DNA from: Antedon mediterranea
Lineage: Eukaryota; Animalia; Echinodermata
Direction: 5' to 3'
Assembly (NCBI RefSeq): GCF_964355755.1
Contig: NC_092674.1
Location: forward strand, 16,182,001-16,246,000
DNA: 64,000 bases
Below, in pieces: positions 26,005 to 64,000 of this stretch. Both the position numbers and the translations under genes were made by a program. How positions within the stretch are numbered: the first letter of the stretch is position 1; every line of letters starts with the position of its first letter. The notes beneath the pieces were generated by a model, which made no database searches, was not told the origin of the DNA, and was given only the letters and a program-made list of their open reading frames with translations.

Positions 26005-26341
26005 AACTATGACCATAACTATAAATATAACCATAACTATAACTATGACCATAACTATAACTATGACCATAACTATAACTATGACCATAACTATAACTAT
26101 GACCATAACTATAACTATGACCATAACTATAACTATGACCATAACTATAACTATGACCATAACTATAACTATGACCATAACTATAACTATGACCATAACT
26201 ATAACTATGACCATAACTATAACTATGACCATAACTATAACTATGACCATAACTATAACTATGACCATAACTATAACTATGACCATAACTATAACTATGA
26301 CCATAACTATAACTATGACCATAACTATAACTATGACCATA
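26005..26341. repeat. 18-bp minisatellite (ACTATGACCATAACTATA)n, about 18 copies
   Basis: Directly visible, nearly perfect array. Confidence 0.97.
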
Positions 26342-35200: not shown

Positions 35201-35733
35201 CTTATGCTGTTATCTATACTATTTATATCCTTTAGAAAAAGCACAGTGTCATCTGCTAGCTGTGCAATCTTAATATCTTTAAATATACCATTGCCTGCAG
35301 GAACAATCAGGCCTTTGACCATATCACATGCTCTTATTTTTGTAGCTAGGACTTCAGCTACTAAAATAAACAATAGAGCAGACAAGGGACATCCTTGTCT
35401 AATACCTTGGTGCATTGCAAAACTTTCTGATTGCCAACCATTATTTGTGAATATACAATTTGTATTGTTATACAGTGCTTTTACCCAGTTCACAAATGAA
35501 ATACCAAAATTGAATTTATTTAAGGCTTCTATTAAAAATGATCTATTGACACTGTCAAATGCTTTTTGGAAATCTAAACTTATAAGTATACCTTCAAGCT
35601 GTTCATTTTCCATGTAAGTAATTATGTCCTCTATTAGTCTTATATTGTCACCACCAAAGCGACCTTTTACATACCCTTTTTGGTCATTGTTTATTATATA
35701 CTTTGCAACTCGATGTAATCTTGTTGTAAGAAC
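32235..35733 (-). mobile_element. 5'-truncated L1/Tx1-type LINE in SAT intron 2
   Basis: Poly(A) tail (T-run 32235-32249) and TSD aactgacc(ttt) at 32227 and 35734. Uninterrupted RT ORF and a ~1.45-kb 3' UTR. Confidence 0.93.
33697..35613 (-). CDS. LINE ORF2 portion: reverse transcriptase plus C-terminal CCHC zinc finger
   Basis: Motifs LDFQKAFDSV, GIRQGCPLS, QLADDT and CDTC...HMLVEC. The frame stays open upstream to the truncation point at ~35733. Confidence 0.92.
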   Translation of the reverse strand: MENEQLEGILISLDFQKAFDSVNRSFLIEALNKFNFGISFVNWVKALYNNTNCIFTNNGWQSESFAMHQGIRQGCPLSALLFILVAEVLATKIRACDMVKGLIVPAGNGIFKDIKIAQLADDTVLFLKDINSIDNSISIIEKFGEVSGLKLNKNKTNAFWLGSLRDCKDTHGNISWTSTPIRILGIYVGHDKEYCYQKNWKEKIDALENTLKTWEKRHLTFFGRITIVKTLALSKIIYNSCILLVPEKVIKEVDKLIFKFIWETKKEKIKRKTMCANYSQGGLKMVEFRSQVISFQVKWYRRLYENDDAKWKYLPTFYIEKIGPKSLTSNLSKVPCNISVPPFYLSVIKSIAVANACNNRLNKEPISYDDIINQSLWGNEFICIKKKPLYNCNWISSGFLKIYDVINNNVFKPAIEIKRRLRCTQNWISEYSCILKAIPKEWKCILKSTHDINVNDIPITNNKVLNMSRQLYRFIIDAQYITPTAQVKWESIFGNMPWTKIWVKKVSGLKEKKLAHFNFKLLHRILPTNERLHRWRLVNSPCCDTCNVIENDKHMLVECITVKCLWREINEIIRAVSIHIPVFSFKRLLFETDNNYVNKLYTLGAFCIYKVKILSLLEKEKKINLLQMFKSEKKIRNM

Positions 35734-36005
35734 AACTGACCTTTAATGTACCTGAATGCATCCAAAGATTTTGATTGGTTTCAATCGGTTAAAATTAAGC
35801 TGATGTATTTCTAACTATGTTATTATTATTTTTCACTGCTGAAACTGAACATTCTTAAAAGTTGAAATCCAACCCAAACCAAAAAAAATGGTTTTGATAT
35901 TTAAAAAATTCTTTCTGTTAATATAAACCAAATTTCAATAAAAAGTCAATTAGCATGTCACAAAAAAAGAAAATATAAATGTTATTCTTTACTTAAATTT
36001 TATAG

Positions 36006-38364: not shown

Positions 38365-39379
38365 TCACAATGTATTAAGTGGAATCTGTAGAGGTGCCGG
38401 TTGACGCACTTTGCACTTAAACATATAAGCAATTGTGTAAAGATACGGATTGACTGAGGAGTTGATGGGTATGATGAATGTCGCTGCCCAAACATATATT
38501 TCATCAGGAATCGTCATCCAACCCGTCTCGGAACCAATTGCCATTACTATAATCGGGGCCCAGCAACAGAAATCAGTGAAAACTATCAGGCCTAGTTTTC
38601 TCGCCATTTTTAACTGTTCTTTTCTCTGCTGTCTTCTGTTGACAGTGGCCCCCGATCTCTTCACTGACAAGAAAATTGTCAGATAACTAAGTACAATTAC
38701 AAAAAAGCCGACGCCATTAAAGGCAACAAAAATGGCAACAGCATACTCCCAACCTGGCCACCGACTTCTGGTTAAAGGTAGTGCAAGGCACACACTTTCC
38801 TTTCCATAATAATTGTCACCAAAATACGATAAGTTTAATTCATTGGCTGTCACTGGAAGAAAACTCAGCACAATCCAGAATAGCCATCCGAAGCTGATAA
38901 TGATTCGACATTTTGTACGATTGAGGCGTTTCGTACTAAATGGATTAACAATGTTAATAGCTCGATCCACACTCAGCAGCATCAGTGTAAACACTGAACA
39001 TTGCCCAGAGAGTGTAGAAATAGCCCCTGCAAAACTGCAAAGAACACTATTTCTCCAAACTCTGGAAACCTTTCCGTATCTTCCTCTGTAATGTATATCC
39101 ACACTCGCAATGATGATCAGATAGACTGCCATCAGCAGGTCAGACACGGCGAGGTTGGTGATAAGTGTAGTTTGGACTTTGTTAATATCATTATCTTTTT
39201 TAAACTTTCGTGAAACGATAACAACAACATTCCCAATGACCGAAGATAACCCGATAATCATCATCAGCACACGGAGAAGTTCATTTTTTAGCAAGTCTTC
39301 ACACGATGCAAATGCATCTGAAGGTTCGCAGACATCGATGGCGCCCACAAGGCAACAGAGACTAGAGTATTCCGAGTAC
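38365..39379 (-). CDS. LRR-containing GPCR (RXFP/GRL101-like): terminal exon encoding the hinge and 7TM domain
   Basis: Hinge SLCC...C.P.DAFASCEDLL, then NLAVSDLLM, SVDR, CLALPL, TDFCCWAPI and PINSSVNPYLY. Acceptor at 39380-39381, phase 2. Confidence 0.95.
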
Positions 39380-39922: not shown

Positions 39923-39994
39923 AATTCGTTTAAGCTTATCAATTGTTGAAAGGTCCTATCCCTGTAAACCTGTATCTTGTTGCCTTTTAATTTT
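39923..39994 (-). CDS. LGR LRR exon (72 bp)
   Basis: KLKGNKIQVYRDRTFQQLISLNE. ag/gtaag, phase 2-2. Confidence 0.88.
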
Positions 39995-40522: not shown

Positions 40523-40597
40523 AAAATTAAAAGTGATGAAGCAAAAGAAGAGAATGCCTCAGGATCTATGGTAGTTATAGCGTTGTTATCTAAGTTC
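40523..40597 (-). CDS. LGR LRR exon (75 bp)
   Basis: NLDNNAITTIDPEAFSSFASSLLI. ag/gtaag, phase 2-2. Confidence 0.88.
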
Positions 40598-41923: not shown

Positions 41924-41995
41924 AGTTCTGTCAATGCTGTCAAACCATTAAATGCATTTGCTGGCAATTTCTTTATTTGGTTATTGTCCAACCTC
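41924..41995 (-). CDS. LGR LRR exon (72 bp)
   Basis: RLDNNQIKKLPANAFNGLTALTE. ag/gtgag, phase 2-2. Confidence 0.9.
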
Positions 41996-42722
41996 CTAAA
42001 ATAAAGAATACACAGTCAAAAGAAATTAAAATATATTTTGTACGATTTTCTTTTCCTATGACTTGTTTTAGATATGGTCCATAATACAGTTGAAACCTCC
42101 TGTGGACACCACTTGTAAATGGACACCTCATAACGGATACTCACATAAAAGTCTGTGTGTCCTTTTTATTCAATATAGTGCATTGGTAAGTACCATTAGG
42201 GAAGAGTGGAATTACTTTCCCTGTTACCATCTTAAATCATCTCAAACATTTCCATAAGAGGACAGGAAAAACATTTTATTTGTATAGATAACTTCTAAAA
42301 ACTGTTTATTTTCTAAAAATAATTTTAAATACTGAAATCTATGTTACTTTACTTTAAAATAGCCTTTATGTTGGAGAATTAGACGCTATACATTATTTGT
42401 TATAGTACAAGATTAAATTCATTCATTCATTCATTTTATTTGGTCCAATATAAAAATACATCAGAAATTCCTCTTATATACACTGCAGAGATAATAACAA
42501 TATACGTACATGCAGAAAACAATCAATATAAAAAATCACTGATAAAATATCAATTCTAATTCTCCGACTGGGCAATTATCACAAAATTTAATGCAATATT
42601 GTGTTTTGTCTGATTGTGAAATCTACTTTTGACTTACTGTATAACAAAATTTAAACATGAACTCATTTTTTATGTAGTAATTCGATCATAATTATAAAGT
42701 ACATATCAATAAAAATACTCAC

Positions 42723-42794
42723 AGCAATGTCAATGCAGTTAAACCAAAAAATGCATTTGCTGGCAATGTGCTTATCTTGAAATCTCTCAACCAC
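42723..42794 (-). CDS. LGR LRR exon (72 bp)
   Basis: WLRDFKISTLPANAFFGLTALTL. ag/gtgag, phase 2-2. Confidence 0.88.
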
Positions 42795-43521: not shown

Positions 43522-46500
43522 GTAGCAGACCATGTATTACGAAATAATTTTCATGTTTTGCGATATGTATTACATATTATTATGTCTATTTCGTGAGATC
43601 CCTATAGACAAGTTCTATTTCCTCTGAAATATGATGTAAGAAGCATTTTTGGGTAGAAGCTGGGATCCACTTGATTTAGGATATTTCGACCTCGCTGATT
43701 ACGAATATGGCGGATCCCAAGCGAAATTCGGCCATCTAAGCCCTTAATTTGCATAATTAAAAATGGCGGCCATTTTTTATAATTACCCTATATCTCGAGA
43801 ACCACTAGTCACAGATAATTAATTTTGGTGTCAAAATGTTTTAAATATATGTTTTTATATTCACTTTAATGACACATTTTCTCAAAAAATGGATGCAAGT
43901 CTTATTTCTGACATTTTGACCTTTGACCTTGATTTATCGTATCTCAGTAACCAATAATCGGAGAGACACGAAATAGGGCTCAAATTGTTCAGAAACTATA
44001 CATTCTTATTTATTATAATGAAATGTTTTTACAAAAAATGGCCGATTCTACAACTATTGACCTTTGAACTATTAGTCAAATATAATAATATAATAATAAT
44101 ATAACTTTGAAAATTGTGGTCTTATGAATTTTTTTTTCTTTTTAAATTGTTTAAAACATGTGTGTTTCTATACAGTCTAATGGCACATTTTGTACAAGAA
44201 TGGCCGATAGTATGGTTATTGACCTTTAAACTACAGCATAGGCCTACTGTATACTGAATATAATATAATTGCATAACTATGAAATTATTTATACTCAATA
44301 ATAATTAGTAAAATTATAAAATTCACTGCCATCAAATATGATGTGTTATGATTTATATAGATTTAAAAAAAAATTGAACACGCAAGTTACATTTGTTGAA
44401 ATTTGAAATTACCTGCCATCAATATGATGGAGTATGATTATAGATTTTTAAAAATGTGAACATGTCAGCTACATTTGGAAATTACCTGCCATCAATATGA
44501 TGGATTATGATTATAGATTTAAAAAAGAATTTGAACACATAAGCTACATTTGAAAATTACCTGCCATCAATATGATGGATTATGATTATAGATTTAAAAA
44601 AGGATTTGAACACGTCAGCTACATTTGGAAATTACCTGCCATCAATATGATGGATTATGATTGTATAGTACCTGCCATCAATATGATGGATTATGATTGT
44701 ATAGGTTTGAAAGAAAAGTGAACACGTAAGCTACATTTGGAATGAACATGTTAAGGGCATCAGTTTTGATCATTCATGCAAAGGTTTCCGTCATCTTTAG
44801 CGTTGTTACAGTAGCATATTAAAGCTGTACATGGTAGTTTTGACTTTTTGCACCTACATCTATATGGTTATGCATCGTGTCTTGCATCAACAATAAATCA
44901 TCTCTAACGAAGCAGTAGGAATAGCTCCATTTTTCAGAAGCACTGGTTGAAGTTTACCATTAGATAGCTCCCAACCAAAATATGTTGGTGATGGCAAATG
45001 CTGGATTGGCGATACAGCTTTTTTCAATACGAGTGCTTGGAAGTGTGCTCTTTTTATATGCTGGTGCACTGCATCGCTTGTTGGAGATAATGCCTCTGGT
45101 TTTTTGTTTTTTTTAACATGGCATGCCTAACTTAAAACTGTCGATAAAGGACACCACCAGACAAAGATGAACCAAAACACAGAGACCAATTCGTCGAATT
45201 ATAGAAAGTGGTGAAATACCGCTGCCAAATTGCTGGTCAAACTTGTTGGCATTACAAGATAATAATGCAGATCTGACACGATTTCTATCAGAGGAGTTGA
45301 TTCGTCAAGCTCCTGTAGACAAAGAAATTGTCACAGCTGGTGGATTTATGAAAGAATCAGTTGTTAAATCATCAAAATTGTACACGAATACGTTGTCTCT
45401 GGTCAGACCATGAAGAATAGGACACGAGACTTGTCATGCTGCCAATGTCCGATACGACACAGTTGTAGTTGCTTCTAGGGATACAGACGTACGTACTAGT
45501 GATTCTAGTGTCTCACTACCAAAGCATGGTATCCAAATGGATGATGATAGGGACATCCAAAAAAAGAAAGTATCTATAAAAGACATTTTTCAAGCCTTGC
45601 CCGAGGGTTCTGCAAAAGCACTGATTCCATTCCACACTATTAGTGGATGCGATACTACCTCATATCCAGGGAAGAGTTAAATTATATTAATACATACATA
45701 CAGTAATTTAACTCTTCACTGCTCATATCTAAGTGGTCACTCAAAGGCATCGGCATGGGAAGTATTAAAAAAAGGTATGAACTAATTAAAGACCTGGGAG
45801 AAAACCTATCAGTGACCAAGTTATTATGAAATCGGAAAGATTCATTTGCTACGTTTACGGTGTTGGTCAAGTTAAAAGTACCAATAAAGTTAGGCTTTAA
45901 AAAAAAAAGGCATTACCTCCAACAAGCGATGCAGTGCACCAACATATAAAAAGAGCACACTTCCAAGCACTCGTATGGAAAAAAGCTGTATCGCCAATCC
46001 AGCATTTGCCATCACCAACATATTTTGGTTGGGAGCTATCTAATGGTAAACTTCAACCAGTGCTTCTGAAAAATGAAGCTATTCCTACTGCTTCGTTAGA
46101 GATGATTTATTGTGGATGCAAGACACGATACATAACCAATAAATGTAGGTGCAAGAAGTCAAAACTACCATGTACAGCTTTATGCCGCTGTAACAACGCT
46201 AAAGATGACGGAAACCTTTGCATGAATGATCTTAACTGATGCCCTTAACATGTTCATTCCAAATGTAGCTTACGTACGTGTTCACATTTTCTTTTAAATC
46301 TATACAATCATAATCCATCATATTGATGGCAAGTAATTTTCAAATGTAGCTTACGTGTTCAAATTCTTTTTTAAATCTATAATCATAATCCATCATATTG
46401 ATGGCAGGTACTATACAATCATAATCCATCATATTGATGGCAGGTAATTTCCAAATTTCCAAATGTAGCTGACGTGTTCAAATTCTTTTTTAAATCTATA

Positions 46501-47675
46501 ATCATAATCCATCATATTGATGGCAGGTAATTTTCAAATGTAGCTTACGTGTTCAAATTCTTTTTAAAATCTATAATCATAATCCATCATATTGATGGCA
46601 GGTAATTTCCCAATTTCCAAATGTAGCTGACGTGTTCAAATTCTTTTTTAATTCTATAATCATAATCCATCATATTGATGGCAGGTAATTTTCTAATGTA
46701 GCTTACGTGTTCAAATTCTTATTTAAATCTATAATCATAATCCATCATATTGATGGCAGGTAATTTCCAAATGTAGCTGACATGTTCACATTTTAGAAAA
46801 TCTATAAGCACACTCCATCATATTGATGGCAGGTAATTTCAAATTTCAAATTTCAAAAAATGTAACTTGCGTATTCAAATTCCTTTTTAAATCTATATAA
46901 ATAATAACACATCATATTTGATGGCAGTGAATTTTATAATTTTACTAATTGTTATTGTGTATAAATAATTTCATAGTTATGCAATTATATTATATTTAGT
47001 ATACAGTAGGCCTATGCTGTAGTTAAAAGGTCAATAACCATACTATCGGCCATTCTTGTACAAAATATTCCATTAGACTGGATAGAAACACGTCACATGT
47101 TTTAAACAATTTAAAAAGAAAAAAAAATTCATAAGACCACAATTTTCAAAGTTATATTATTATTATATTATTATATTTGACTAATAGTTCAAAGGTCAAT
47201 AGTTGTAGAATCGGCCAGTTTTTGTAAAAACATTTCATTATAATAAATATGAATGTATAGTTTCTGAACAATTTGAGCCCTATTTCGTGTCTCTCCGATT
47301 ATTGGTTACTGAGATACGATAAATCAAGGTCAAAGGTCAAAATGTCAGAAATACAACTTGCATCAATTTTTTGAGAAAAAGTGTCATTAAAGTGAATATA
47401 AAAACATATATTTAAAACATTTTGACACCAAAATTAATTATCTGTGACTAGTGGTTCTCGAGATATAGGGTAATTATAAAAAATGGCCGCCATTTTTAAT
47501 TATGCAAATTAAGGGCTTAGATGGCCGAATTTCGCTTGGGATCCGCCATATTCGTAATCAGCGAGGTCGAAATATCCTAAATCAAGTGGATCCCAGCTTC
47601 TACCCAAAAATGCTTCTTGATTCGTTTTCTAGGCCGTTTTTTGAGAAATGGAACCTGTCTACTACCTGTATAGAC
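43522..47675 (+). mobile_element. Decayed Academ-like DNA transposon with long inverted arms (~43638-45130 vs ~45890-47618)
   Basis: Ends gtagcagac / gtctactac. Broken XPG/PIN-like motifs HEE*DTRL, VVVASRDTDV and FHTISGCDTTS (45410-45665). The C-terminus HIKRAHFQ...GW...CGCK...CRC..CTALCRC is present on both strands. Internal ~70-bp minisatellites occur in both arms. Confidence 0.8.
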
Positions 47676-48039: not shown

Positions 48040-48111
48040 AGTTCTGGCAGTGATGTCAACCCATTAAACGCATTGGCTTCTAGTGTACGTATTTGATTAG
48101 ATTCCACCAAG
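48040..48111 (-). CDS. LGR LRR exon (72 bp)
   Basis: LVESNQIRTLEANAFNGLTSLPE. ag/gtgag, phase 2-2. Confidence 0.88.
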
Positions 48112-50095
48112 CTAGAAATCAAGAAAAGTAAAGTTCAGTAAGAAAAAATTGCAGTATTCAAAACTATATATACTACTATAAACTATAATTTAAAACCATT
48201 AGTTACCATTAAAGATTAGATCTAAGAATTCTAATTCTCCGACTGGGTAATTATCACAAAATTTAATTCAAAATTGTGTTTTGTCTGCTTGCTTGTGAAA
48301 TGTTACTTTTCTTTGTTTTCCACGGGATTACACTGTAGTGATATAGGTGGACAACATTATACATCGCAATTCAGTTATTTTTGTAAACACACATATCCCC
48401 CCCCCCCCCCTGTTTTTAATGGTGGTGGGGGAGGGGGATCCTGTTGTCACCGCTGTAATTCAATAAATGAAACAGGTACTGAAATGGTACTGAATGATGC
48501 TTCATTTTATGAAAACCACATAAAATAATCATGATTATTGAAAGAAAATTAGACATTGGTATAAGAAATGCATTAAAAAAGTAGAAATAACAAAGCAATT
48601 TCAATCAATATGTAAATAATGTTTAGGTAAGTTTTGATTTTTAAAGAATAGGTTTAAGCAGCAAGACAAGAAATATGATATGAACTAACTTTAATTTTAT
48701 AGCCTTGTTTTGTTCACATTCATTTATTCATTCATATTCAATATCATAAGTAAAAAATAGAAATTTTGTTCTCATAGTACACTGTTTAAGCTAAATTATG
48801 TTACAAAATAAAATATAACAGTTTATTATATCTCAACCGTATGTTGTAACAGTAAATAAAAATATAATTATATTTTATTTGTATTACCAACTGAATGGAT
48901 CTTTTAAAGGGTAAATTATGTTTGTTTTTTTTATAGGCATGTTGCAAGTCATGACAAAATATCTTTTATTTTTTAACAGCAAACTGTAGTGATAGTATGC
49001 CTAGTGTCACTTAACCCTGAACGGAATGATAATAATGAAATGGCAAAGATTAAAACTGTGTAGCATTTTTTAATTCATTTTTGCTGTACATACATTGAAC
49101 TAATGAATTATTAATCAAAAGAAATTCATAAGAGTAACTAAAAAAAAAATACCTGTAATCAGTGATTTGCCCGACGTGCAATATCCTTCAAAGTAAGAGA
49201 AATACAAAGTAATTGTTATTATAAAAAATATATATATATATATATTTTTTGATAATTCAAAACAAAATAACTACATAAACAAAATGTAGTAAATCTTACT
49301 TAAAGGATATTTAAATTGTAAAATATTATTTTACAACTGAAAATTTATTTTGATTTATTATATTATCTTACAAAAAATTAAAAAAATTCATAGTGAATTC
49401 ATTAAAAAGAAGTTGTTTATTGTCGTGATGTGGTTTCCCGATTAATCGTACGATCAAAACGGTACTGGGTATGATTAAAAAGAAGTTGTTTATTTTTGGG
49501 GTTGGGTGTGGGGAGTGGTTTAAACTTATAATCACATAATAATATAATTATTATATATTAATTATTTTGTTATAGTTGTCCTACAATGTAAAATACAATT
49601 TCTAATTTAACTTTTTAATTAAAACTAAATTGTAGTACAGTAAATACATTATACTGCATGTAATCCATCTATTGTATACTTTAGTATGTCAAAATATAAT
49701 ATGTTAAAATAAAAATTTGGTAAATATATTTTAATAATTTATTTCCTAAAACAAAATGTTTACACCAAATTCAAATCGTTAGCAACCATAATAAATGTAT
49801 TATCTAATATGTAATACAGATTCAGTTTCAATTGTTATATCTTACAAAATTAAATAGTTCAATCATGGTGTATACATTTAAAAAATGTTGATTTTAAAAT
49901 TATTTGAAATAATTTGATAAATTTAAAAATGTTGATTTTAAAATTCTTTTTCTGTAAATAGTCGTAATGTACACATTAGTCCATTTTTACAATTGAACCT
50001 ACAATGAATGCACTCCATTGTATAAACATTTTAATGTCAAAATATAAAATATATATGTAAATTTTAATTTTAAATCACTACATAAACAAATACTA

Positions 50096-53054
50096 ACTAG
50101 ATTTAATTCGTCACTATGACGAATTATAGGTTATATGCATTGATTTAAATAAAGATAATTGATTTTTAAAAGATATATTGATTGATTGATTTTGTCAGAA
50201 TCTTTAATTATTTATAATATATGATAGGACCTTGCTAACGCGAACACCATAGCCGGTATCACAATCCGATCAAAGATCCATATGCGTATAATGTCATAAA
50301 CCACATTTGTTGTTACATAATAATAAAGACATAAGTTAATTTTTATCTAGATTTCATTATAAATCATGTGTATAATCTATACACTAAGAAATAAATTTGA
50401 ACAAACAATACGGATAATAAAAAAAAAATCTTATTTCGTTTCCCAAGGTGAGACTCGAACTCGGTACCTTGAATGCCATAGACACGAGCACAGACCATTG
50501 AGCCATACACAACTGACTAAAAGTTGGAGAAAAATTCCTCCGTGTATTTACTATGCAGTAACCACTTTGGTGCAGATAGATTATTACATACCGCAATGAA
50601 TTATAATTTTTTACTATGATGACATCTTTAAAAATTGAAAAAAAATGATGCACTGTCAAACTATATACTTTTACCTTTAATATATGAACTTCTTAAGGAA
50701 GAAAGTTAATGTTAAGTTTGTTATTTTGGCCTAAGAAAATGTTATAATTTGTTTGATTGTCGAAATTAATTTTGTTAAATTTAATATGCCATTAATGATG
50801 ACTTAATCAACTTTTGTTCTTCTAATTTCATAATAAATCATACATATGATACATACACTTCAAGAAAATTAAATAAAAAATAGGTGTTCCCGAGCATCCT
50901 AACGATATATATTAACTTTAAAATTTAGCATATTTTCACCATTTTGTTAACTTACACGTGCGTAGCCTGTCACATTTGACGTGCTCGTATAACGCTGTTT
51001 CGCGTTGAAAAGTGAATAAAATATGATAATATTATTAAAGAAAGGTTATACAACAGTAATCGGACAAAAACAGTGCGCATTAACGTTTGACGCGCAGTGC
51101 ACGTGCAAAAATCTGCGCACTCATGGCAATTTTTTAAACGCTTAAAATTGCCTGAAACGTACTCTAATTTCATCGAAAATAAATTCTGACAATTTTCAAC
51201 ATTTTAAGCGCGCGTACGCATGCGTTATATGCGCTACGCACGTAATTGTATTGCCATATGATGAAATATGACCTGAAATTTATGAGTACCAAATTTTGTT
51301 TAATTGTGATTCATGCTTGTGAAGATATGAGTACAAACGTGATTTCGTTAAATCACGCGTAGACCGCGTAATTTTTGATTGCGCATCGTGAAAACATAAC
51401 CACTTCGATTCCTGGCCATAAGGAATATACTCTGAAAAATTGACTTAGATAGATGAAACTTATGCCAAGATAATTCACGGACAAATAGTGCTAAGGAAAG
51501 AATAAATAAATAAACTAGATTTAATTCGTCACTATGACGAATTATAGGTTATATGCATTGATTTAAATAAAGATAATTGATTTTTAAAAGATATATTGAT
51601 TGATTGATTTTCTCAGAATCTTTAATTATTTAAAATATATGATAGGACCTTGCTAACGCGAACACCATAGCCGGTATCACAATCCGATCAAAGACCCATA
51701 TGCGTATAATGTCATAAACCACATTTGTTGTTACATAATAATAAAGACATAAGTTAATTTTTATCTAGATTTCATTATAAATCATGTGTATAATCTATAC
51801 ACTAAGAAATAAATTTTAACAAAAAATACGGATAATAAAAAAAAAATCTTATTTCGTTTCCCAAGGTGAGACTCGATCTCGGTACCTTGAATGCCATAGA
51901 CACGAGCACAGACCACCGAGCTGTACGTACACAACTGACTAAAAGTTGTAGAAAAATTCCTCCGTGTATTTACTATGCAGTAACCACTTTGATGCAAATA
52001 GATTATTACATACCGAAATGAATTATAATTTTTTACTATGATGACATCTTTAAAATGTATACAAATGATGCACTGTCAAACTACATACTTTTAACTTTAA
52101 TATATGAATTTTTTAAGGAAGAAAGTTAATGTTAAGTTTGTTATTTTGGCCTAAGAAAATGTCATAATTTGTTTGATTGTCGAAATTGTTTTTTTTAAAT
52201 TTAATATGCAATTAATGATGACTTAATCAACTTTTGTTCTCTTTATTTGATAATAAATCATACATATGATACATACACTTCAAGAAAATGAAATAAAAAA
52301 TAGGTGTTCCCCTGCATTCTGACGATATATATTAATTTAAAAATTTAGCATATTTTCACCATTTTGTTAACTTATACGTGCGTAGCCAGTCACTTTTGAC
52401 GTGCTCGTATAACGCAATTTCGAGTTGAAACCTGAATCAAATATGATGATATTATTAAAGAAAGATTGTAAAACAGAAATCGGGCAAAAAGAGTGCGCAT
52501 TAACGTTTAGTGCGCGTGCAAAAAGCTGCGCTCTCATGGCAATTTTTTAAACGCTTAAAATTGCCTGAAACGTACTCTAATTTCATCGAAAATAAATTTT
52601 GACAATTTTGAACATTTTAAGCGCGCGTACGCAAGCGTTATATGCGCTACGCACGTAATTTTATTGCCATATGATGAAATATGACCTGAAATTTATGAGT
52701 ACCAAATTTTGTTTAATTGTGATTCATGCTTGTGAAAATATGATTACAAACGTGATTTCGTAAAATCGCGCGTAGACCGCGTAATTTTTGATTACGCATC
52801 GTGAAAATATAACCACATCGATTCCTGGCCATGAGGAATATACTCTGAAAACTTGACTTAGCTAGATTAAACTGATGCCAAGATAATGCACGGACAAAAT
52901 AGTGCTAAGGAAAGAATAAATAAATAAATAAAGATTTTGACAGAATCAAGAGGTTATATGCATATCATGCATATAACCTAATAAATAAATAAAGAAATAA
53001 ATAAAGATTGTGACAGAATCAAGAGGTTATATGCATGATAATGCATATAACCTA
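50096..53054 (-). mobile_element. Helentron-like family A copy, containing a second nested copy
   Basis: Same termini as 2069-7338. The empty site aaatacta|attatttag is seen in sister array units (e.g. ~55910), with no TSD. Confidence 0.82.
51514..52981 (-). mobile_element. Helentron-like family A copy nested in the (aaat)n tract of the previous copy
   Basis: Complete actagattt...atataaccta element. The host's terminal ~60 bp follow at 52995-53054. Confidence 0.82.
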
Positions 53055-53579
53055 ATTATTTAGTAACATTTGTTATAATGATATTTATATTGTGACATTT
53101 ACAATAAAAATTTATTTTGAATTATTTTTATTTTAAAAAAATTAAATTTGTGGATGGGAAAAAAAACTATTGATTTTTAAAGATAATTTTTATAAGATCA
53201 CAAATTGTGAAATTATGTAATAATATTAATCCATTATCATTGCTTAACCAAAAATGTAAAATAATTTTATATTTAATTTCTATATTTAAACCAAATTGGT
53301 AAAAGTAAGCAAACATAAGCAATACACTTGCAAATATTTAAAATCAAAGATAAATTTTGAATTATTATATATTACAGAAAAAATAAAGTTCATTCATGGT
53401 GGATGAACTATGAGACTAGTGATTTTTAAAGATATTTTTATAAGATCACAAATTGTGAAATTATGTAATAATATTAATCCATTATCATTGCTTAACCAAA
53501 AATGTAAAATAATTTTATATTTAATTTCTATATTTAAACCAAATTGGTAATAGTAAGCAAACATAAGCAATACACTTAC

Positions 53580-53651
53580 AGTGTTTCCAATGCTGTCAAA
53601 CCAGCAAATGCATTGGCTTGTAATGTACTTATTTGGTTACCGCTCAAATAC
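53580..53651 (-). CDS. LGR array LRR exon 7 (72 bp)
   Basis: YLSGNQISTLQANAFAGLTALET. ttttaag/gtaagt. Confidence 0.88.
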
Positions 53652-54408
53652 CTTAAAAGTAAAAAGAATGCACAGTATAAATATAATCACAATATCCAAG
53701 CTGTTTTTAAATTATTTTAGTTTTTCTGTCACCTCAAATGTTGAAATGTCTACATTCCTGTACATTATACAGTAGTTATACTGCATGTACTCTATTGTAT
53801 GTACTTTAGTTATGTCAAAATATATTATGTTAAAATAAAAATGTGGTAAATATATTTAAATTCACATTTTTGAATTGTTTTACAACAATAAATAATTCAA
53901 TCATGGTAGATAAATAAAAAAAAATGTTGATTTTAAAATTCTTTTTACTGTAAATAATTAAATTATGGAATCATAATGTACACATTAGTCCATTATTACA
54001 ATTGAACCTACAATGCATGCATTGTATTGTATCAATATTTTATGGAAAAATATACAATATATAGGTAAATTTTAATAGTTTTTATTCTCATAAGACAAAA
54101 TTATTACATAAATAAATATTAATTATTTAGTAACATTCATTATAATGATATTTATATTGCAAATATTTAAAATCAAAGATAAATTTTGAATTATTATATA
54201 TTACAGAAAAAATAAAGTTCATTCATGGTGGATGAACTATGAGACTAGTGATTTTTAAAGATATTTTTATAAGATCACAAATTGTGAAATTATGTAATAA
54301 TATTAATCCATTATCATTGCTTAACCAAAAATGTAAAATAATTTTATATTTAATTTCTATATTTAAACCAAATTGGTAATAGTAAGCAAACATAAGCAAT
54401 ACACTTAC

Positions 54409-54480
54409 AGTGTTTCCAATGCTATCAAACCAGCAAATGCATTGGCTTGTAATGTACTTATTTGGTTACCGCTCAAATAC
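54409..54480 (-). CDS. LGR array LRR exon 6 (72 bp)
   Basis: YLSGNQISTLQANAFAGLIALET. Confidence 0.88.
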
Positions 54481-55237
54481 CTTAAAAGTAAAAAGAATGC
54501 ACAGTATAAATATAATCACAATATCCAAGCTGTTTTTAAATTATTTTAGTTTTTCTGTCACCTCAAATGTTGAAATGTGTACATTCCTGTACATTATACA
54601 GTAGTTATACTGCATGTACTCTATTGTATGTACTTTAGTTATGTCAAAATATATTATGTTAAAATAAAAATGTGGTAAATATATTTAAATTCACATTTTT
54701 GAATTGTTTTACAACAATAAATAATTCAATCATAGTAGATAAATAAAAAAAAATGTTGATTTTAAAATTCTTTTTACTGTAAATAATTAAATTATGGAAT
54801 CATAATGTACACATTAGTCCATTATTACAATTGAACCTACAATGCATGCATTGTATTGTATCAATATTTTATGGAAAAATATACAATATATATGTAAATT
54901 TTAATAGTTTTTATTCTCATAAGACAAAATTATTACATAAATAAATATTAATTATTTAGTAACATTCATTATAATGATATTTATATTGCAAATATTTAAA
55001 ATCAAAGATAAATTTTGAATTATTATATATTACAGAAAAAATAAAGTTCATTCATGGTGGATGAACTATGAGACTAGTGATTTTTAAAGATATTTTTATA
55101 AGATCACAAATTGTGAAATTATGTAAACATTTTAATCCATTATCATTGTTTAACCAACAAAGTAAAATAATTTTATATTTAATTTCTATATTTAAACCAA
55201 ATTGGTAAAAGTAAGCAAACATAAGCAATACACTTAC

Positions 55238-55309
55238 AGTGTTTCCAATGCTGTCAAACCAGCAAATGCATTGGCTGGTAATGTACTTATTTGGTTATAC
55301 CTCAAATTC
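55238..55309 (-). CDS. LGR array LRR exon 5 (72 bp)
   Basis: NLRYNQISTLPANAFAGLTALET. Confidence 0.88.
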
Positions 55310-56422
55310 CTTAAAAGTAAAAAGAATGCACAGTATAAGTAAATCACAATATCCAAGCTGTTTTTAAATTATTTTAGTTTTTCTGTCACCTCAAATGTTG
55401 AAATGTCTACATTCCTGTACATTATTACTCTATATTAGTGATGTCAAAATATGTTATGTTAAAATAAATATGGTAAATATAATTATAAAAATAAAAAATG
55501 ATAGAATATATTCTATTATTAATGTGTAATTGTATTTCTAAATTAAAACCAAATAAATAAACTGATTGAAACAACATAAAATTACTCTAAACCATCAGCT
55601 GTAGTTCAACATTAACAACTGCACCCCCCCCCCCCCTCTGGTCACTATTATCATGGACCTTTAAATTAGCATGAATCTATATAAATTCTTTCTTTCTTTG
55701 GTTGCAGAATATTTGTTGTATCAATAAACTTATGTTAAACCGATTCAATTTCAATTATTATCTTACAAAAATAAATAATTCAATCATGGTGGATACATTT
55801 TAAAAATGTTGATTTTAAAATAATTCTTTTTGCTATACATACAAATATAAAATATATATTTATATTTTAATAATTTTTTTCTCATAAGACAAAATTAATA
55901 CATAAACAAATACTAATTATTTAGTAACATTTGTTATAATAATATTTATATTGTGATATTTACAATAAAAATTTATTTTGAAATATTATTATTTAAAAAA
56001 ATAAAGTTCATTCATGGTGGATGAGAAAAAACTATTAATTACTAAATTATAAATTACATTATTACTCTATTAGTGATGTCAAAATATGTTATGTTAAAAT
56101 AAATGTGGTAAATATAATTATTTTAACAATTTGCAAAGTATAAGTAAATTGCTATATATCCAATCTGTTTTTACATTATTTTGTTGAAATGTCTACATAT
56201 ATATATATTGTGATATTGATTTTAAATTATTATGTATTATTTAAAAAATTAAGTTCAAACTATTGATTTTTAAAGTTATTTATTACAAGATCACAAATTG
56301 TGAAATTATATAATAATATTAATCCATTATCATTGCTTAACCAACAATGTAAAACAATTTGTAATTTAATTCTAAATTAAACCAAATTGGTAAAACTAAG
56401 CAAACATAAGCAATACACTTAC

Positions 56423-56494
56423 AGTGTTTCCAATGCTGTCAAACCAGCAAATGCATTGGCTTGTAATGTACTTATTTGGTTACCGCTCAAATAC
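56423..56494 (-). CDS. LGR array LRR exon 4 (72 bp)
   Basis: YLSGNQISTLQANAFAGLTALET. Confidence 0.88.
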
Positions 56495-57249
56495 CTTAAA
56501 AGTAAAAAGAATGCACAGTATAAATATAATCACAATATCCAAGCTGTTTTTAAATTATTTTAGTTTTTCTGTCACCTCAAATGTTGAAATGTGTACATTC
56601 CTGTACATTATACAGTAGTTATACTGCATGTACTCTATTGTATGTACTTTAGTTATGTCAAAATATATTATGTTAAAATAAAAATGTGGTAAATATATTT
56701 AAATTCACATTTTTGAATTGTTTTACAACAATAAATAATTCAATCATAGTAGATAAATAAAAAAAAATGTTGATTTTAAAATTCTTTTTACTGTAAATAA
56801 TTAAATTATGGAATCATAATGTACACATTAGTCCATTATTACAATTGAACCTACAATGCATGCATTGTATTGTATCAATATTTTATGGAAAAATATACAA
56901 TATATAGGTAAATTTTAATAGTTTTTATTCTCATAAGACAAAATTATTACATAAATAAATATTAATTATTTAGTAACATTCATTATAATGATATTTATAT
57001 TGCAAATATTTAAAATCAAAGATAAATTTTGAATTATTATATATTACAGAAAAAATAAAGTTCATTCATGGTGGATGAACTATGAGACTAGTGATTTTTA
57101 AATATATTTTTATAAGATCACAAATTGTGAAATTATATAATAATATTAATCCATTATCATTGCTTAACCAACAATGTAAAACAATTTGTAATTTAATTCT
57201 AAATTAAACCAAATTGGTAAAACTAAGCAAACATAAGCAATACACTTAC

Positions 57250-57321
57250 AGTGTTTCCAATGCTGTCAAACCAGCAAATGCATTGGCTTGTAATGTACTT
57301 ATTTGGTTACCGTACAAATCC
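57250..57321 (-). CDS. LGR array LRR exon 3 (72 bp)
   Basis: DLYGNQISTLQANAFAGLTALET. Confidence 0.88.
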
Positions 57322-58242
57322 CTTAAAAGTAAAAAGAATGCACAGTATAAGTAAATCACAATATCCAAGCTGTTTTAAAATTATTTTATTTTTTCTGTCA
57401 CCTCAAATGTTGAAATGTGTACATTCCTGTACATTATACAGTAGTTATACTGCATGTACTCTATTGTATGTACTTTAGTTATGTCAAAATATATTATGTT
57501 AAAATAAAAATGTGGTAAATATATTTAAATTCACATTTTTGAATTGTTTTACAACAATAAATAATTCAATCATAGTAGATAAATAAAAAAAAATGTTGAT
57601 TTTAAAATTCTTTTTACTGTAAATAATTAAATTATGGAATCATAATGTACACATTAGTCCATTATTACAATTGAACCTACAATGCATGCATTGTATTGTA
57701 TCAATATTTTATGGAAAAATATACAATATATATGTAAATTTTAATAGTTTTTATTCTCATAAGACAAAATTATTACATAAATAAATATTAATTATTTAGT
57801 AACATTCATTATAATGATATTTATATTGCAAATATTTACAATTAAAGATTAATTTTGAATTATTATATATTACAGAAAAAATAAAGTTCATTCATGGTGG
57901 ATGAACTATAAGACTAGTGATTTTTAAAGATGTTTTTATAAAATCACAAATTGTGAAATTATGTAAACATTTTAATCCATTATCATTGTTTAACCAACAA
58001 AGTAAAATAATTTGTAATTTAATTCTAAATTAAACCAAATTGGTAAATGTAAGCAAACATAAGCAATACACTTACCTTTTTGTTATTATAATATTTATAT
58101 TGTGATATTTACAATAACAATTTATTTTGAAATATTATTATTTAAAAAAATAAAGTTCATTCATGGTGGATAAGCAAAAAACTATTAATTACTAAATTAA
58201 ACCAAATTGGTAAAAGTAAGCAAACATAAGCAATACACTTAC

Positions 58243-58314
58243 AGTGTTTCCAATGCTGTCAAACCAGCAAATGCATTGGCTGGTAATGTACTTATTTGGT
58301 TATACCTCAAATAC
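58243..58314 (-). CDS. LGR array LRR exon 2 (72 bp)
   Basis: YLRYNQISTLPANAFAGLTALET. Confidence 0.88.
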
Positions 58315-59111
58315 CTTAAAAGTAAAAAGAATGCACAGTATAAATATAATCACAATATCCAAGCTGTTTTTAAATTATTTTAGTTTTTCTGTCACCTCAA
58401 ATGTTGAAATGTCTACATTCCTGTACATTATACAGTAGTTATACTGCATGTACTCTATTGTATGTACTTTAGTGATGTCAAAATATACTATGTTAAAATT
58501 AAAAGGTGGTAAATAAATTTTAAAACTTATTTTGTTAAAATAACATTTCTACAACAAATTCAAATTGTTTGTTAGCAACCATATAATAAATGTATTATCT
58601 AATATGTAATACAGATTCACTTTCAATTGTTATATCTTACAAAAATAAATAATTCAATCAATGTGGATAAATTTTAAAAATAATAATGAAATGATAGAAT
58701 ATATTCTATTATTAATGTAAAATAATGTGTAATTGTATTTCTAAATTAAATGTTAAACTGATTAAATTTCAATTATTATCTTACAAAAATAAATAATTCA
58801 ATCATGGTGGATAAATTTTAAAAATGTTGATTTTAAAATAATTCTTTTTGCTATACATACAAATATAAAATATATATTTATATTTTAATAATTTTTTTCT
58901 CATAAGACAAAATTAATACTTAAACAAATACTAATTATTTAGTAACATTTGTTATTATAATATTTATATTGTGATATTTACAATAACAATTTATTTTGAA
59001 ATATTATTATTTAAAAAAATAAAGTTCATTCATGGTGGATAAGCAAAAAACTATTAATTACTAAATTAAACCAAATTGGTAAAAGTAAGCAAACATAAGC
59101 AATACACTTAC

Positions 59112-59183
59112 AGTGTTTCCAATGCTGTCAAACCAGCAAATACATTGGCTGGTAATGTACTTATTTGGTTATACCTCAAATTC
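59112..59183 (-). CDS. LGR array LRR exon 1 (72 bp)
   Basis: NLRYNQISTLPANVFAGLTALET. Confidence 0.88.
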
Positions 59184-60472
59184 CTTAAAAGTAAAAAGAA
59201 TGCACAGTATAAGTAAATCACAATATTCAAGTTGTTTTAAAATTATTTTAGTTTTTCTGTCACCTCAAATATTGAAATGTCTACATTCTTGTACATTATT
59301 ACTCTATTAGTGATGTCAAAATATGTTATGTTAAAATAAATGTGGTAAATATAATTATTTTAATAATTTATTTTTATAAATCAATTGTTTGGTCAACCAT
59401 AATAAATGTATTATCTAATATGTTAAACAGATTCAATTTAAATTGTTATCTTACAAAATAAATAGTTCAATCATGGTGGATAAATTTAAGAATTGTTGCT
59501 TTTTAAATTTGTTTTACTATAAATAATCATGAAATCATAAGGTACATATTAGTCCATTATTACAATTGAACCTACAATGCATGCATTGTATTGTGTCAAC
59601 ATTTTATTGATGTCAAAATAAAAATTATTAAAAGTAAATATTCATCTCAAAACGTATGAATGTATAGTTGTACATGATATTGTTCACTATAGGTTTAATT
59701 ATGTTACTCTGCACCTTATATCTTAATTTGTGTTTTATTTAGGGTTATCCCTTTGTTCTTATAATTATGTGATGCCACTGCCCTTTTTTAACACTCAAAC
59801 AAATAAAGACTTGGTTATACTGATTGGTTTGATAAATGTGTATTTATTGAAGTCTGTGACATTTGTTGAATTTGAATATAATTATCAATTAAAGACAAAA
59901 TTACTACATAAACAAATACTAGTTATTTAGTAACAATGATTTTGATATTTATATCGTGAAATTATACAATAAAGGATTTCGAATTATTATATCCTCCAAA
60001 AAAAAAGTTCACTCATGAACAAGAAAATGAATTGTTTTTAGAGTTATTTTTATAAGTATAAAGATAATAAAATTATATAATAATATTAATCCATTATCAA
60101 TGTGTAAATGTATTTATAAATTAAAAACAAACTGGTTAAAATAACCAAACATGTAAATTTGCCTTTGTTCCACACACAAAAGAATCACAAAAAGCTGGTA
60201 AAAATCACAAAATACAAACAATATAGTATAAACTAGCAAATGTGAAAAATTAAAACATTAAAAATAATACAGAGCACTCTACTCTCATTCAGAATGTACA
60301 CGTCACATTACTTGTTTTAACTACCTTATTTATATATATTCCAAATAGATGATTGACTGATTGGGAGCATGCACATAGCTGACCATGTTATAATTTTTGG
60401 AAAACTAAGGCCTACCTACCAAATACCTACAATCGTTTTAATCATTTTTTTTTTAGTCTATCACATTCTTAC

Positions 60473-60535
60473 GTAAAATGTCGTATACGGATATTGACCA
60501 GATTAATGATGAGCCCGTAAACTGATTGAAACGAC
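60473..60535 (-). CDS. Candidate 63-bp phase 2-2 exon (possibly a divergent first LRR)
   Basis: tttag|...|gtaag, open frame SFQSVYGLIINLVNIRIRHF. Poor match to the LRR consensus. Confidence 0.4.
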
Positions 60536-60729
60536 CTAAATATACTGTAGACCGCCACAAGACCAGTAGTTTCACATTAACAAATTCCACCCACTCCCCC
60601 TCTGTTCAATATTATCATGATCCTACTGTATAAAGCATGGACCTATTATCAAAGAAATATAAATTTTGCTCACAGTATGACATAAATTTAGTTAAATTTC
60701 AATATATCGACAAAAGATGTTCTACTTAC

Positions 60730-60880
60730 AATGTTGTTATTGGATCATACACATTGTACTTAACAAGCTCTGTATGTATATTTGCATTCCATGGATTACA
60801 TCTAGTGTTATTATAACAATCATCCGAGTAACACGTCGGGACATTACATGTGCAAGATGCTGGGCATCCGACTATAGGCC
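60730..60880 (-). CDS. LGR LRR N-terminal cap exon (151 bp, phase 1-2)
   Basis: PIVGCPASCTCNVPTCYSDDCYNNTRCNPWNANIHTELVKYNVYDPITT. CPxxCxC motif and canonical splice sites. Confidence 0.85.
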
Positions 60881-61309
60881 CTAATGATTTTGTAAAAAAA
60901 AAACAAGCAGTAACTAAAAGTACTGTACTTTGTTTCTATCTTACATAGTAGAACACTACGATAATGATGAATAATGATGGTGATAACAATGAGTATTTTA
61001 AAGATGAACATAAATTCTTATAATTCGATACAGGTGAAATAAAATCATATCATATTTAAGTTTCAATATTACACTGTTTAATTTAACGGTATTGTTTATT
61101 TCGTCGTGTTAAACAATGGAATATTATGAAAGGAGAATAAACGACGCCAAAAGTAGTTTAATCTCTTTTTTCTCTAACTGGGTAAACTCTTGAAAATAGA
61201 ACTTATTTTTATATAATTTATAAAACAAAACACTCCCTCTTAGTCAATAGTGTATTGTAATACCGCCTGTTAGTACTGAAGTTTGTATTAAGTGTGAAAT
61301 TGTCCTTAC

Positions 61310-61370
61310 ATTGACAAATAACACTAGCATCCTCATCGTGTCCACAATCGTGTACTCTCATTCCATTACA
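61310..61370 (-). pseudogene. Remnant exon encoding the C-terminus of an SRCR domain
   Basis: CNGMRVHDCGHDEDASVICQ matches SRCR HxCxHxEDAxVxC. It has a gtaag donor in phase 1, but the apparent acceptor reads ttttacaa. Confidence 0.55.
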
Positions 61371-61687
61371 TTGTAAAATTACAATACAAGTTTAAAACAT
61401 TTCTTTATTTACATGCATACTGTTATTAATCCTAGTTGAGTGTTAGTAGCAGCGGCAGTATATTATCAGGGCATCGGCAGCGGTAGTATATTATCAGGGC
61501 ATCGGCAGTAGCAGTAGTAGTAGTAATACACGGTATTCTTGGAGTGAGGGGTAATAATATTCTGCCTTACAAATAAGTAAATAAATAGTTTGCGGAAAAT
61601 GTTTACTAAAGCCAAAAAATGAAATTATTTTAATTAATTGTATTAATTACTGCTATTATTTTTAAATTATAAAGTACGACAAATAGA

Positions 61688-62160
61688 AATCGTATGTGAT
61701 AATAGGCATACAGAATGGAAGAGATGTCCGGCGATTAAAACCAGTCAAATCTTATAAAGTGTGACGTAACAATCGTATGTGATAATACGCATACAGAATA
61801 GAAGTGATGTCCGGCGATTCAAACCAGTCAAATCTTATAAAGTGTGACGTAACAATCGTATGTGATAAATAGGCATACATAATGGAAGAGATGTCCGGCG
61901 ATTAAAACCAGTCAAATCTTATAAAGTGTGACGTAACAATCGTATGTGATAATACGCATACAGAATAGAAGTGATGTCCGGCGATTCAAACCAGTCAAAT
62001 CTAAAGTGTGACGTAACAATCGTATGTGATAATACGCATACAAAATGGAAGCGATGTCCGGTGATCAAAACCTGCCGAATGTTATAAAGTGTGATTGTTA
62101 TAATAAAGTGTGACGCATACAGAATTGAAGTGATGTCCGGCGATTAAAACCAGTCAAAAC
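61688..62160. repeat. ~83-bp minisatellite, 5-6 copies with alternating variants
   Basis: aatcgtatgtgataat...gatgtccggcgatt..aaccagtcaaatcttataaagtgtgacgtaac. Confidence 0.92.
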
Positions 62161-62865
62161 TAATAAAGTTTAGACAAAAATGTTATTAAAAACGATTATT
62201 TTTCCATATCGGGCCTCTCTTTATGGAAATCCAAAAAACACTTAAGCAAGATTTAATTTAGCATATAATGAGTTAGATGTTTGGGAAATATTCTGCAACA
62301 GTAACAATAATGATAAAATGTTATATATTCTGGGAACTACAATAATACTTTAATGTGTTTTGACAAATTTAGGGAAAAGAAATGATCTTAAAACTGTACA
62401 GCTCGCAGAGAACATTGGTGCTGCATTTTTCAGTTGTTGCTCCCCCAACATTGGCACCTTTTTCAAGCTTATTCGCGAATCGTTTCGGTTTGACGTTTGA
62501 CGCGCGTGTAAAATGCTCAGTGGGAACCGGTCTTAAGTGTGTGGATACATCGAAAGATGAACAAAATAGTGCAAAATATTAGTTCTTGAACAAATGGAAA
62601 AAACTCTCGCAATTTTACTATTTGTTCATTAAAAGGTAAACTATTGACAACATTAACTAAAGAATTTGATCACAGTACCGTATATAAAAAATCTAAAATG
62701 TATAGTTCGAAAAAATATTTTCATTTCATTTCAATAAAACATTATAGAACAATGTTGTAAAATAAGGATTAGCCACAAATTCTGAAAAGGTCATCAAATA
62801 TTATAATGCCTTACAATATTATAATATCTATTAAAAATGATAAATATTAAGAGAAGTAATCATAC

Positions 62866-62941
62866 CGGAATTTGAACCAACATCAGCACAACTAGAAAAC
62901 GATAACTCCACCAATATTATTACCACTTTAAAGACAAACAT
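62866..62941 (-). CDS. Candidate first coding (signal peptide) exon of the LGR
   Basis: MFVFKVVIILVELSFSSCADVGSNS-G|gtatga. The phase-1 donor is compatible with the LRR-NT exon. An in-frame upstream ATG lies at 63013. Confidence 0.5.
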
Positions 62942-63215
62942 CTTTTTATGCAATTCAGTACCGTGATGTGCGTAGTAAACTTTATCTCCGAAAGTCATCT
63001 CAACGTTTGACATAATATTGTTTCTTTTAGTATTGTTGCAAAAGAGTTTTAAATAATTAATATAAATCAGTTCACCAGCTGTATTACTTTGCTTAGTGGT
63101 TGATATTAATATTTAATTGTTTTGTTGGAATAAGTAATTACATAGATTGAAGATAAACAGTAATGAATGTGAATTTACTATGTGTACTGTTATTATGAAT
63201 ATAATGTGACTATAT

Positions 63216-63425
63216 CAGGAGTATTAGTTAGACACTGGTAGTGTACTAACCCTTATTTACTTATGTATATAACAGGAGTATTAGTTAGACACTGGTAGTG
63301 TACTAACCCTTATTTACTTATGTATATAACAGGAGTATTAGTTAGACACTGGTAGTGTACTAACCCTTATTTACTTATGTATATAACAGGAGTATTAGTT
63401 AGACACTGGTAGTGTACTAAGCCTT
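63216..63425. repeat. 57-bp tandem repeat, ~3.6 copies
   Basis: caggagtattagttagacactggtagtgtactaacccttatttacttatgtatataa. Confidence 0.93.
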
Positions 63426-63466
63426 ATTATTTTTTTTTTCAATCGAGTTCGAACAATACCATGAAA

Positions 63467-63538
63467 GCCCCAGTGGTCTAATGGTTAGGACATCTGCATA
63501 TCAAGCAGGCGATCCGAGTTCGAGTCTCGGTTGGGGCG
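63467..63538 (+). tRNA. tRNA-like cloverleaf, anticodon ATC (Asp-derived pseudo-tRNA, probably part of a mobile element)
   Basis: Acceptor stem GCCCCAG/TTGGGGC, D stem GTCT/GGAC, anticodon stem TCTGC/GCAGG with loop ATATCAA, T arm CCGAG-TTCGAGT-CTCGG. A T-run follows at 63541. Confidence 0.65.
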
Positions 63539-63590
63539 ACTTTTTCTCATTCTCACAGATTTCCTCATCTTTATCGTTTCAAATTAATTA

Positions 63591-63710
63591 ATTAAATTTC
63601 AGTATATCACCGGGCGGTTTAGAATTAATGTTCATTGCCTGATGTGTGTATATATATAAACACAAGAGGCAAAGAACATTAATTCTAAACCGCCCGCTGA
63701 TATACTGAAA

Positions 63711-63750
<40 letters not shown>

Positions 63751-63817
63751 CTTTCAGTATATCACCGGGCGGTTTAGAATTAATGTTCATTGCCTGATGT
63801 GTTTATATATATACACA
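63591..63817. repeat. Inverted repeat hairpin (63591-63716), (AT)n tract and direct copy (63751-63817): Penelope-like terminal structure
   Basis: tttcagtatatcaccgggcggtttagaattaatgttc occurs forward, reverse, then forward. Confidence 0.8.
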
Positions 63818-63818
63818 C

Positions 63819-63860
63819 TTGCACTGATGAAGGGCTAGTGTTGCCCGAAAGCTCTGCTAA
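63819..63860 (+). ncRNA. Minimal type I hammerhead ribozyme
   Basis: Stem I gca/tgc, core CTGATGA, stem II gggc-tagtgtt-gccc, GAAA, short palindromic stem III (agct), and predicted cleavage after TC at 63854. Confidence 0.78.
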
Positions 63861-64000
63861 CTTTTCTGGCTGTTTACTTTATCGTTTTGATTTAGCTTTT
63901 CGCTTTTTATTTTTGTATCTCCATTGAGATCCAGCCACTGATACCCACAGCATTGTCATTTTTTTCAGTTATTTGCCTTTGGATTTATATATATTTTGAT

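Follow-up and report, generated by a model that had tools for sequence, protein, structure and literature searches.

Seven homogenised leucine-rich repeat exons in a GRL101-type receptor gene of the crinoid Antedon mediterranea, and the family to which the gene appears to belong

Introduction

Variable leucine-rich repeat (LRR) receptors are known from jawless fish, where they are assembled somatically, and from plants and brown algae, where they diversify in the germline or by splicing. The LRR-bearing G-protein-coupled receptors (GPCRs), or LGRs, are known as conserved hormone receptors, and the ligand of GRL101 is hypothesised to be an insulin-like peptide. Can one receptor family join the two? 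The question is raised by a stretch of 64,000 nucleotides of Antedon mediterranea (NCBI RefSeq assembly GCF_964355755.1, contig NC_092674.1, positions 16,182,001 to 16,246,000), hereafter the window, in which a predicted gene carries an array of seven 72-nt LRR exons ahead of a rhodopsin-type seven-transmembrane domain (7TM). An earlier sequence-only reading took this gene for a variable-specificity receptor diversifying by exon copy number, recombination and possibly alternative splicing, an interpretation that our analysis supports in part. With moderate confidence, we regard the gene as one member of an expanded crinoid family of LRR-GPCRs that derives from GRL101 and lacks LDLa modules, whose LRR exons are copied and recombined, likely in the germline, and whose products are likely variable-specificity sensors of foreign molecules. 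The feature itself is real and part of a family-wide pattern of LRR-exon diversification, here on a GPCR.

The seven array exons and their variation

A scan of the window for AG-72 nt-GT(A/G)AG with an open phase-2 LRR frame recovered seven intact 72-nt LRR exons on the minus strand, between positions 53580 and 59183, together with two older LRR exons farther down the gene. All seven are open and phase 2-2, have the ends ...ttttaag / gtaagtgt, and share a 25-nt acceptor, just as the sequence-only reading had described them. In gene order, the series of motifs runs through E1 (59112-59183; NLRY, with V at codon 14), E2 (58243-58314; YLRY), E3 (57250-57321; DLYG), E4 (56423-56494; YLSG), E5 (55238-55309; NLRY), E6 (54409-54480; YLSG, with I at codon 19) and E7 (53580-53651; YLSG, identical to E4), a total of four types.

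These exons differ by 10 changes at 9 segregating sites. The earlier reading had listed exactly these differences and called every one of them non-synonymous, which our count confirms (10 non-synonymous, none synonymous across 18-23 synonymous sites). Codon 1 has three states, codon 3 varies at three sites and codon 4 at two, with single changes at codons 11, 14 and 19. Hence, 7 of the 10 changes sit in codons 1, 3 and 4, in line with the claim that variation is focused on the exposed x positions of the repeat. CpG decay was considered as an origin of the hotspot and rejected, since most hotspot changes are transversions. Each array exon also contains an imperfect 22-nt palindrome at nt 31-52 (e.g. 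window 58263-58284; 20/22 in E2 and E5).

Within the exon, pairwise diversity averages 0.246 over nt 2-13 and 0.019 over the other 60 nt. It is 0.026 and 0.021 in the flanks, of which we compared the parts alignable in all seven units (116 nt upstream and 46 nt downstream, respectively). The array thus shows homogenisation centred on the exon, within which the differences retained form a sharp peak. Under neutrality, 10 changes with no synonymous one among them have P=0.023-0.061, according to the transition bias assumed. With structural positions excluded, P=0.016-0.018 for 7 of 10 changes falling in the five concave x codons. Non-synonymous changes (10/53) exceed those of the flanks (10/162) with P=0.012, and a scan statistic gives P=0.005 for 6 of 19 segregating sites inside any 11-nt window. 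Judged from the window alone, the focusing of variation is borderline: suggestive, not proven.

The position of these codons on the fold was assessed with an AlphaFold model of the paralog P0133, which was folded in place of the window protein. The model has an LRR solenoid on a 7TM (pLDDT 84, pTM 0.72), and its best fold matches are LGR4, TSHR, FSHR and LHCGR, with the RXFP1 structure matched too. The strand of each repeat is at codons 23-24-1; the concave strand therefore finishes with codon 1, and the loop that follows it holds codons 3-4. By analogy with VLR (variable lymphocyte receptor) and LGR structures, the variable positions of the array would be the ones that bind ligand (PMC3900441).

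An expanded crinoid family

Stronger evidence of focused variation comes from the family than from the window. In a quick IQ-TREE phylogeny of 64 rows (63 from a set of 149 proteins, plus the window; SH-aLRT support only), the gene falls in a crinoid clade of 28 rows (98) with two branches, one of 22 Antedon rows (99) and one of 6 Anneissia rows (90). Since the window row and P0043 represent a single gene, the Antedon models number 21, and these are spread over at least 7 large sequences of 25-41 Mb. The sister of the clade is the pair of LDLa-bearing Antedon models P0003 and P0004 (SH-aLRT 100, in a tree without a verified Lymnaea GRL101 or RXFP row). In 8 other models the 7TM is at least 92% identical to that of the window. 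On this tree, the gene is a member of an LDLa-less offshoot of GRL101-type receptors that has expanded in crinoids. The loss of LDLa is firm for the window model, P0002 and P0046 only, because many models are truncated.

The paralogs, compared at the protein level only, differ in LRR number and x residues on a near-identical 7TM, and receptors with similar arrays, which the sequence-only reading had proposed to search for, are thus found among the protein models. The clearest cases are P0133 and P0130, which are 99.4% identical to the window in hinge and 7TM and 76-77% in the LRRs. When their six repeats on the same backbone are compared with the seven of the window, codons 1, 3 and 4 are 21% identical, the other exposed positions 88% and the structural positions 100%. 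Their five motifs (DLGS, NLYS, DLRG, NLRW and YLNT) include none of the four of the window. P0137, from a second subfamily with a 7TM 65% identical, has 11 canonical repeats on a different backbone, and its variability is 0.75 at the five concave positions vs 0.11 at the other exposed ones (exact P=1/4368). A concave bias is also present in P0133 repeats 1-4 (P=0.0007), in P0005 (P=0.015) and in the window (P=0.045). Codons 22-23 vary in P0137 and P0133 and are fixed in the window array.

As a control, we computed the ratio of this bias in all proteins of the set with at least five canonical repeats (38/149). It reached at least 1.5 in five Antedon models and one unnamed protein, and was 0.9-1.3 in the other 32. 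Among further relatives, 14 of 137 qualified; their ratios were 0.8-1.2, and no P value fell below 0.05. The control is not matched for age, as old saturated repeats cannot give a high ratio. Short proteins sharing the LRR backbone gave 14 matches at 43-57% identity among the best 7996 candidates scored, and no fragment of an Antedon array.

Several models show features of their own. A 3-LRR block occurs twice in P0001, and P0130 and P0133 have repeated blocks as well; therefore, duplication also acts above the single exon. P0132 (XP_071950792.1) is a 7TM-only model, 98.5% identical, with one hinge Cys changed; its accession follows that of P0043 and it is probably a neighbour gene outside the window. 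P0028, an unrelated GRL101-like protein, has its own homogenised LRR run in which mainly codons 20-23 vary, a hint that arrays of this kind have other origins as well. Scallops also have long-LRR relatives for which no LDLa domain is listed.

Recombination among the units

The sequence-only reading had placed the exons in near-identical units of about 830 bp, a description that does not hold. The array introns measure 797, 921, 755, 1113, 757 and 757 nt (span 755-1113), and only 6 of their 15 pairs are close (1.3-3.2% apart). The other 9 pairs are 7.6-10.2% apart, in alignments that are rough (16-31 gaps). Four of the introns are largely collinear, and the array introns are recombined mosaics. 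Diversification by recombination, also proposed earlier, is borne out: among the array units, the four-gamete test fails for 13 of the 36 informative pairs of sites, and therefore the units have exchanged sequence.

The unit alignment also revealed two exon-less remnants on the minus strand. One (58019-58075) retains the donor site and the downstream flank; the other (53080-53332) is a partial duplicate of the post-exon flank in which the exon is absent and the donor dead. Their presence indicates that the units undergo breakage and rejoining. At about 49220-50070, 5' of a mini-exon in gene order (see below), lies a diverged copy of the unit intron, and a 2.2-kb block recurs at 91% identity (53052-55237 vs 55913-58075). 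A search for orphan or inverted LRR exons with nhmmer found none in the 64-kb window, returning only the 11 input exons and partial matches of 16-22 nt.

The predicted gene

Joining the canonical exons gives an open frame of 699 aa, in the order signal-peptide exon, Cys-cap exon, seven array LRRs, five older LRR exons and hinge-7TM exon. A 33-nt mini-exon (49153-49185) would add 11 aa, for a predicted product of 710 aa. All 16 predicted exons are open, have intact splice sites and lie on the minus strand. Exon 1 (60945-61011) has an ATG, a predicted signal peptide, an open frame and a gtaaga donor in phase 1; the hydrophobic N-terminus resembles those of P0002 and P0046. Exon 2 (60730-60880) encodes a Cys-rich, LRRNT-like N-cap with CPxxCxC. 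Since the intron that precedes it has 64 nt, there is no room for LDLa exons between the two, and we found no LDLa motif in the predicted model nor in the six frames of 59184-64000. The mini-exon encodes half an LRR in phase 2-2 between ag/gt sites, and its peptide occurs in P0130 and P0133, as does that of older LRR exon 9 (42723-42794). Exon 10 (41924-41995) is the first LRR of the public model P0043 (XP_071950791.1, Antedon mediterranea 'GRL101-like'), and exons 8 (48040-48111), 11 (40523-40597, 75 nt) and 12 (39923-39994) come from the exon scan and the gene model. The last exon (38365-39379) encodes a short CC hinge, an intact rhodopsin-type 7TM and the stop. This 7TM spans the full Pfam 7tm_1 profile (E=4.5e-32), has RXFP1 as top PDB sequence match (E=4e-48) and carries the motifs GN, DRA, FTDFCCWAP and NSSVNP. 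The final 410 aa are identical to P0043.

The rest of the window

Two introns of the gene contain large insertions. Between LRR exons 8 and 9, a young 4-kb foldback (43638-47618) has 525-nt outer arms at 99% and holds nested inverted 75-nt tandem arrays as well as fragments resembling a transposase. The intron that follows the array (50082-52928) has a 1.4-kb element in tandem duplicate at 94%, of which another copy lies at about 2069-3974. Two tandem single-ORF (open reading frame) genes with collagen and C1q domains (9636-10520 and 11623-12564, minus strand) are found 26 kb downstream of the receptor; a role in recognition is common among C1q proteins. The window further contains a reverse transcriptase ORF of LINE (long interspersed nuclear element) type (33700-35742, minus strand), a broken LINE with an ORF1-like part (14728-16973, plus strand), an integrase C-terminus of LTR (long terminal repeat) type (29375-30088, minus strand) and an 18-nt tandem repeat (26005-26341; 18.7 copies at 98%) that is open in several frames and probably non-coding.

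Interpretation and rival explanations

If the gene belongs to a family of variable-specificity receptors, unequal crossover in the germline would add and remove repeats with the frame kept, and gene conversion would keep scaffold codons and splice flanks alike. Selection would hold the strand-end and loop residues, i.e. the x codons, different. Each gene or allele would present its own binding surface on one conserved G-protein-signalling body, whose 7TM would signal through G proteins. Microbial or parasite ligands are our first guess and would make up about half of the variable-receptor case; a defensive role is favoured over a sensory one because the binding residues turn over faster than the rest of the gene. 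Exon skipping in the array is possible and is not needed by this interpretation; by computation, seven exons allow 120 distinct in-frame products. A bolder version, which we consider tentative and rather unlikely, is that crinoids turned a hormone-receptor-type GPCR into a VLR-like repertoire of dozens of genes, with single-LRR exons shuffled both among loci and inside them, and perhaps joined in different combinations by splicing in single cells. Such a repertoire, signalling directly via G proteins, would provide an invertebrate deuterostome with modular recognition of variable specificity.

Several observations weigh against variable-specificity sensors, and the most general is that nothing points directly to immunity. 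The changes in the array are not independent: counted as 8 codon-level events, the lack of synonymous ones has P=0.05-0.11 and the concave clustering among free positions P=0.08, while the scan with adjacent changes merged gives P=0.28 when the 11 nt may lie anywhere and 0.007 when their place is pre-specified. Codon 11 varies (Q/P), and the array shows no variation at codons 22 and 23, which are on the concave side as well. The sequence-only reading had asked whether exons diverge more than introns. Whole exons do not (5.7%, with a mean of about 6% over the 15 whole-intron pairs) and only the hotspot does, which comes close to the refuting outcome named by that reading; conversion may lower synonymous divergence, given that whole introns diverge as much as whole exons. 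P0002 and P0001 repeats 1-3 lack a significant concave bias (P=0.12). Finally, P0043 starts at another exon (window 42144-42230) and leaves out the array, and many public paralog models are truncated.

The omission of the array from the public model would also fit neutral concerted evolution or relaxed constraint, in which a unit of a recently copied, perhaps silent gene was amplified by chance and changes survived where LRRs tolerate them. Few independent events are required, perhaps three old exon types, two introns have large young insertions, and some paralog models (P0132 and P0135) either consist of the 7TM alone or carry a change at a Cys of the hinge or loop. Yet every predicted exon is open with its splice sites intact, the synonymous sites are unchanged, and the 11 other exposed positions, tolerant too, remain alike in both the window array and P0137. 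We therefore hold this explanation to be unlikely. Less likely still is an array inflated or scrambled by the assembly from two haplotypes or paralogs, to which we give very little credence: the recurrence of the 2.2-kb block could be taken that way, but the units are set apart by numerous private substitutions and indels, arranged as a mosaic, no N is present in the window, and models from other sequences have arrays like this one.

Diversified by the same mechanism, the family may instead detect cues from the environment or from conspecifics (food, settlement, pheromone or gamete peptides) and have no part in defence; this has a small but appreciable chance of being right. GRL101-like transcripts are enriched in starfish sensory tentacles (PMC6267866) and confined to the tentacles in triton snails (PMC13403566), and a G-protein output suits sensory cells. 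However, these are other receptors, the starfish one having six LDLa modules, and the rapid turnover of binding residues on a 99% identical 7TM would suit an arms race more than stable cues. The array may instead be a cassette store from which cells express different receptors, by regulated exon choice as in Dscam or by somatic rearrangement as in VLRs. In its favour are the symmetric exons with identical splice sites, the Anneissia isoform models P0141 and P0145, which differ by one 24-aa repeat, and the LRR exon skipping noted in LGR RNA-seq (PMC8286064). Against it, the germline gene is complete, there are just seven exons of four types with no inverted or orphan LRR exon in 64 kb, and the acceptors are identical and strong, with no sign of mutually exclusive splicing. 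We consider a cassette store improbable.

With a family of variable-specificity receptors that joins variable LRRs and LGRs, echinoderms would have a new candidate system for recognising non-self or chemicals. The family would also offer a natural test of the way in which a repertoire is built exon by exon through gene conversion and selection. Public annotation hides it through the omission and truncations mentioned above. Since the variable codons are few and defined, the idea is directly testable.

Comparison with known systems

We found no report of such arrays in crinoid or other GRL101-like receptors in full-text searches of a literature collection with few subscription journals. Many LDLa-less LRR-GPCRs were reportedly described in the sea urchin genome in 2006, and the expansion of such receptors is probably not new in itself.

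With its LRR ectodomain, Cys hinge and class A 7TM, the predicted receptor is an LGR, and one phase-2 exon per LRR is the ordinary LGR layout, e.g. in gonadotropin receptors (PMC11378527). It shares the rhodopsin-type 7TM, the short CC hinge and the LRR ectodomain with GRL101 (type C2) and RXFP (type C1), and its 7TM is 57% identical to that of the LDLa-bearing crinoid receptors that form its sister group. As for the RXFP/GRL101-type scaffold proposed earlier, the 7TM does group with the GRL101 type. Yet the gene is neither a standard GRL101, a receptor defined by multiple LDLa modules (PMC4079206), nor a standard RXFP, which has a single N-terminal one: within the window, it has none. Whereas each ambulacrarian has one ortholog of each insulin-peptide LGR (PMC8286064), this gene is multi-copy and has homogenised repeats with variable x residues. 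The view of the scaffold as a conserved hormone receptor was therefore rejected, given the multiple copies and the lack of LDLa, in favour of a multi-copy crinoid offshoot.

The closest analogues are the lamprey VLRs and the LRR exons of brown-algal ROCO genes. Lamprey and hagfish VLRs, too, are built of 24-aa LRR modules, in which the scaffold is fixed and the concave face varies (PMC3900441). Their genes are incomplete in the germline, and hundreds of donor cassettes serve for their somatic assembly (PMC12264053), whereas the window gene is complete, has introns between repeats and a 7TM at its end, and the 64 kb hold no donor cassettes. Membership among the VLRs was rejected because the germline gene is complete. 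The ROCO genes of Ectocarpus likewise have one symmetric 72-nt exon per LRR in a recombined region, next to a nearly identical signalling part, with variable repeat number, diversifying selection and a candidate immune role (PMC3341825, PMC11378527). They differ by their cytoplasmic GTPase carrier, intact exons on the opposite strand and reported splice variants (same sources), while the window gene is a predicted animal cell-surface GPCR and its introns hold no inverted or non-coding LRR exon in the window. Of the two, the brown-algal ROCO genes are the closest working analogue.

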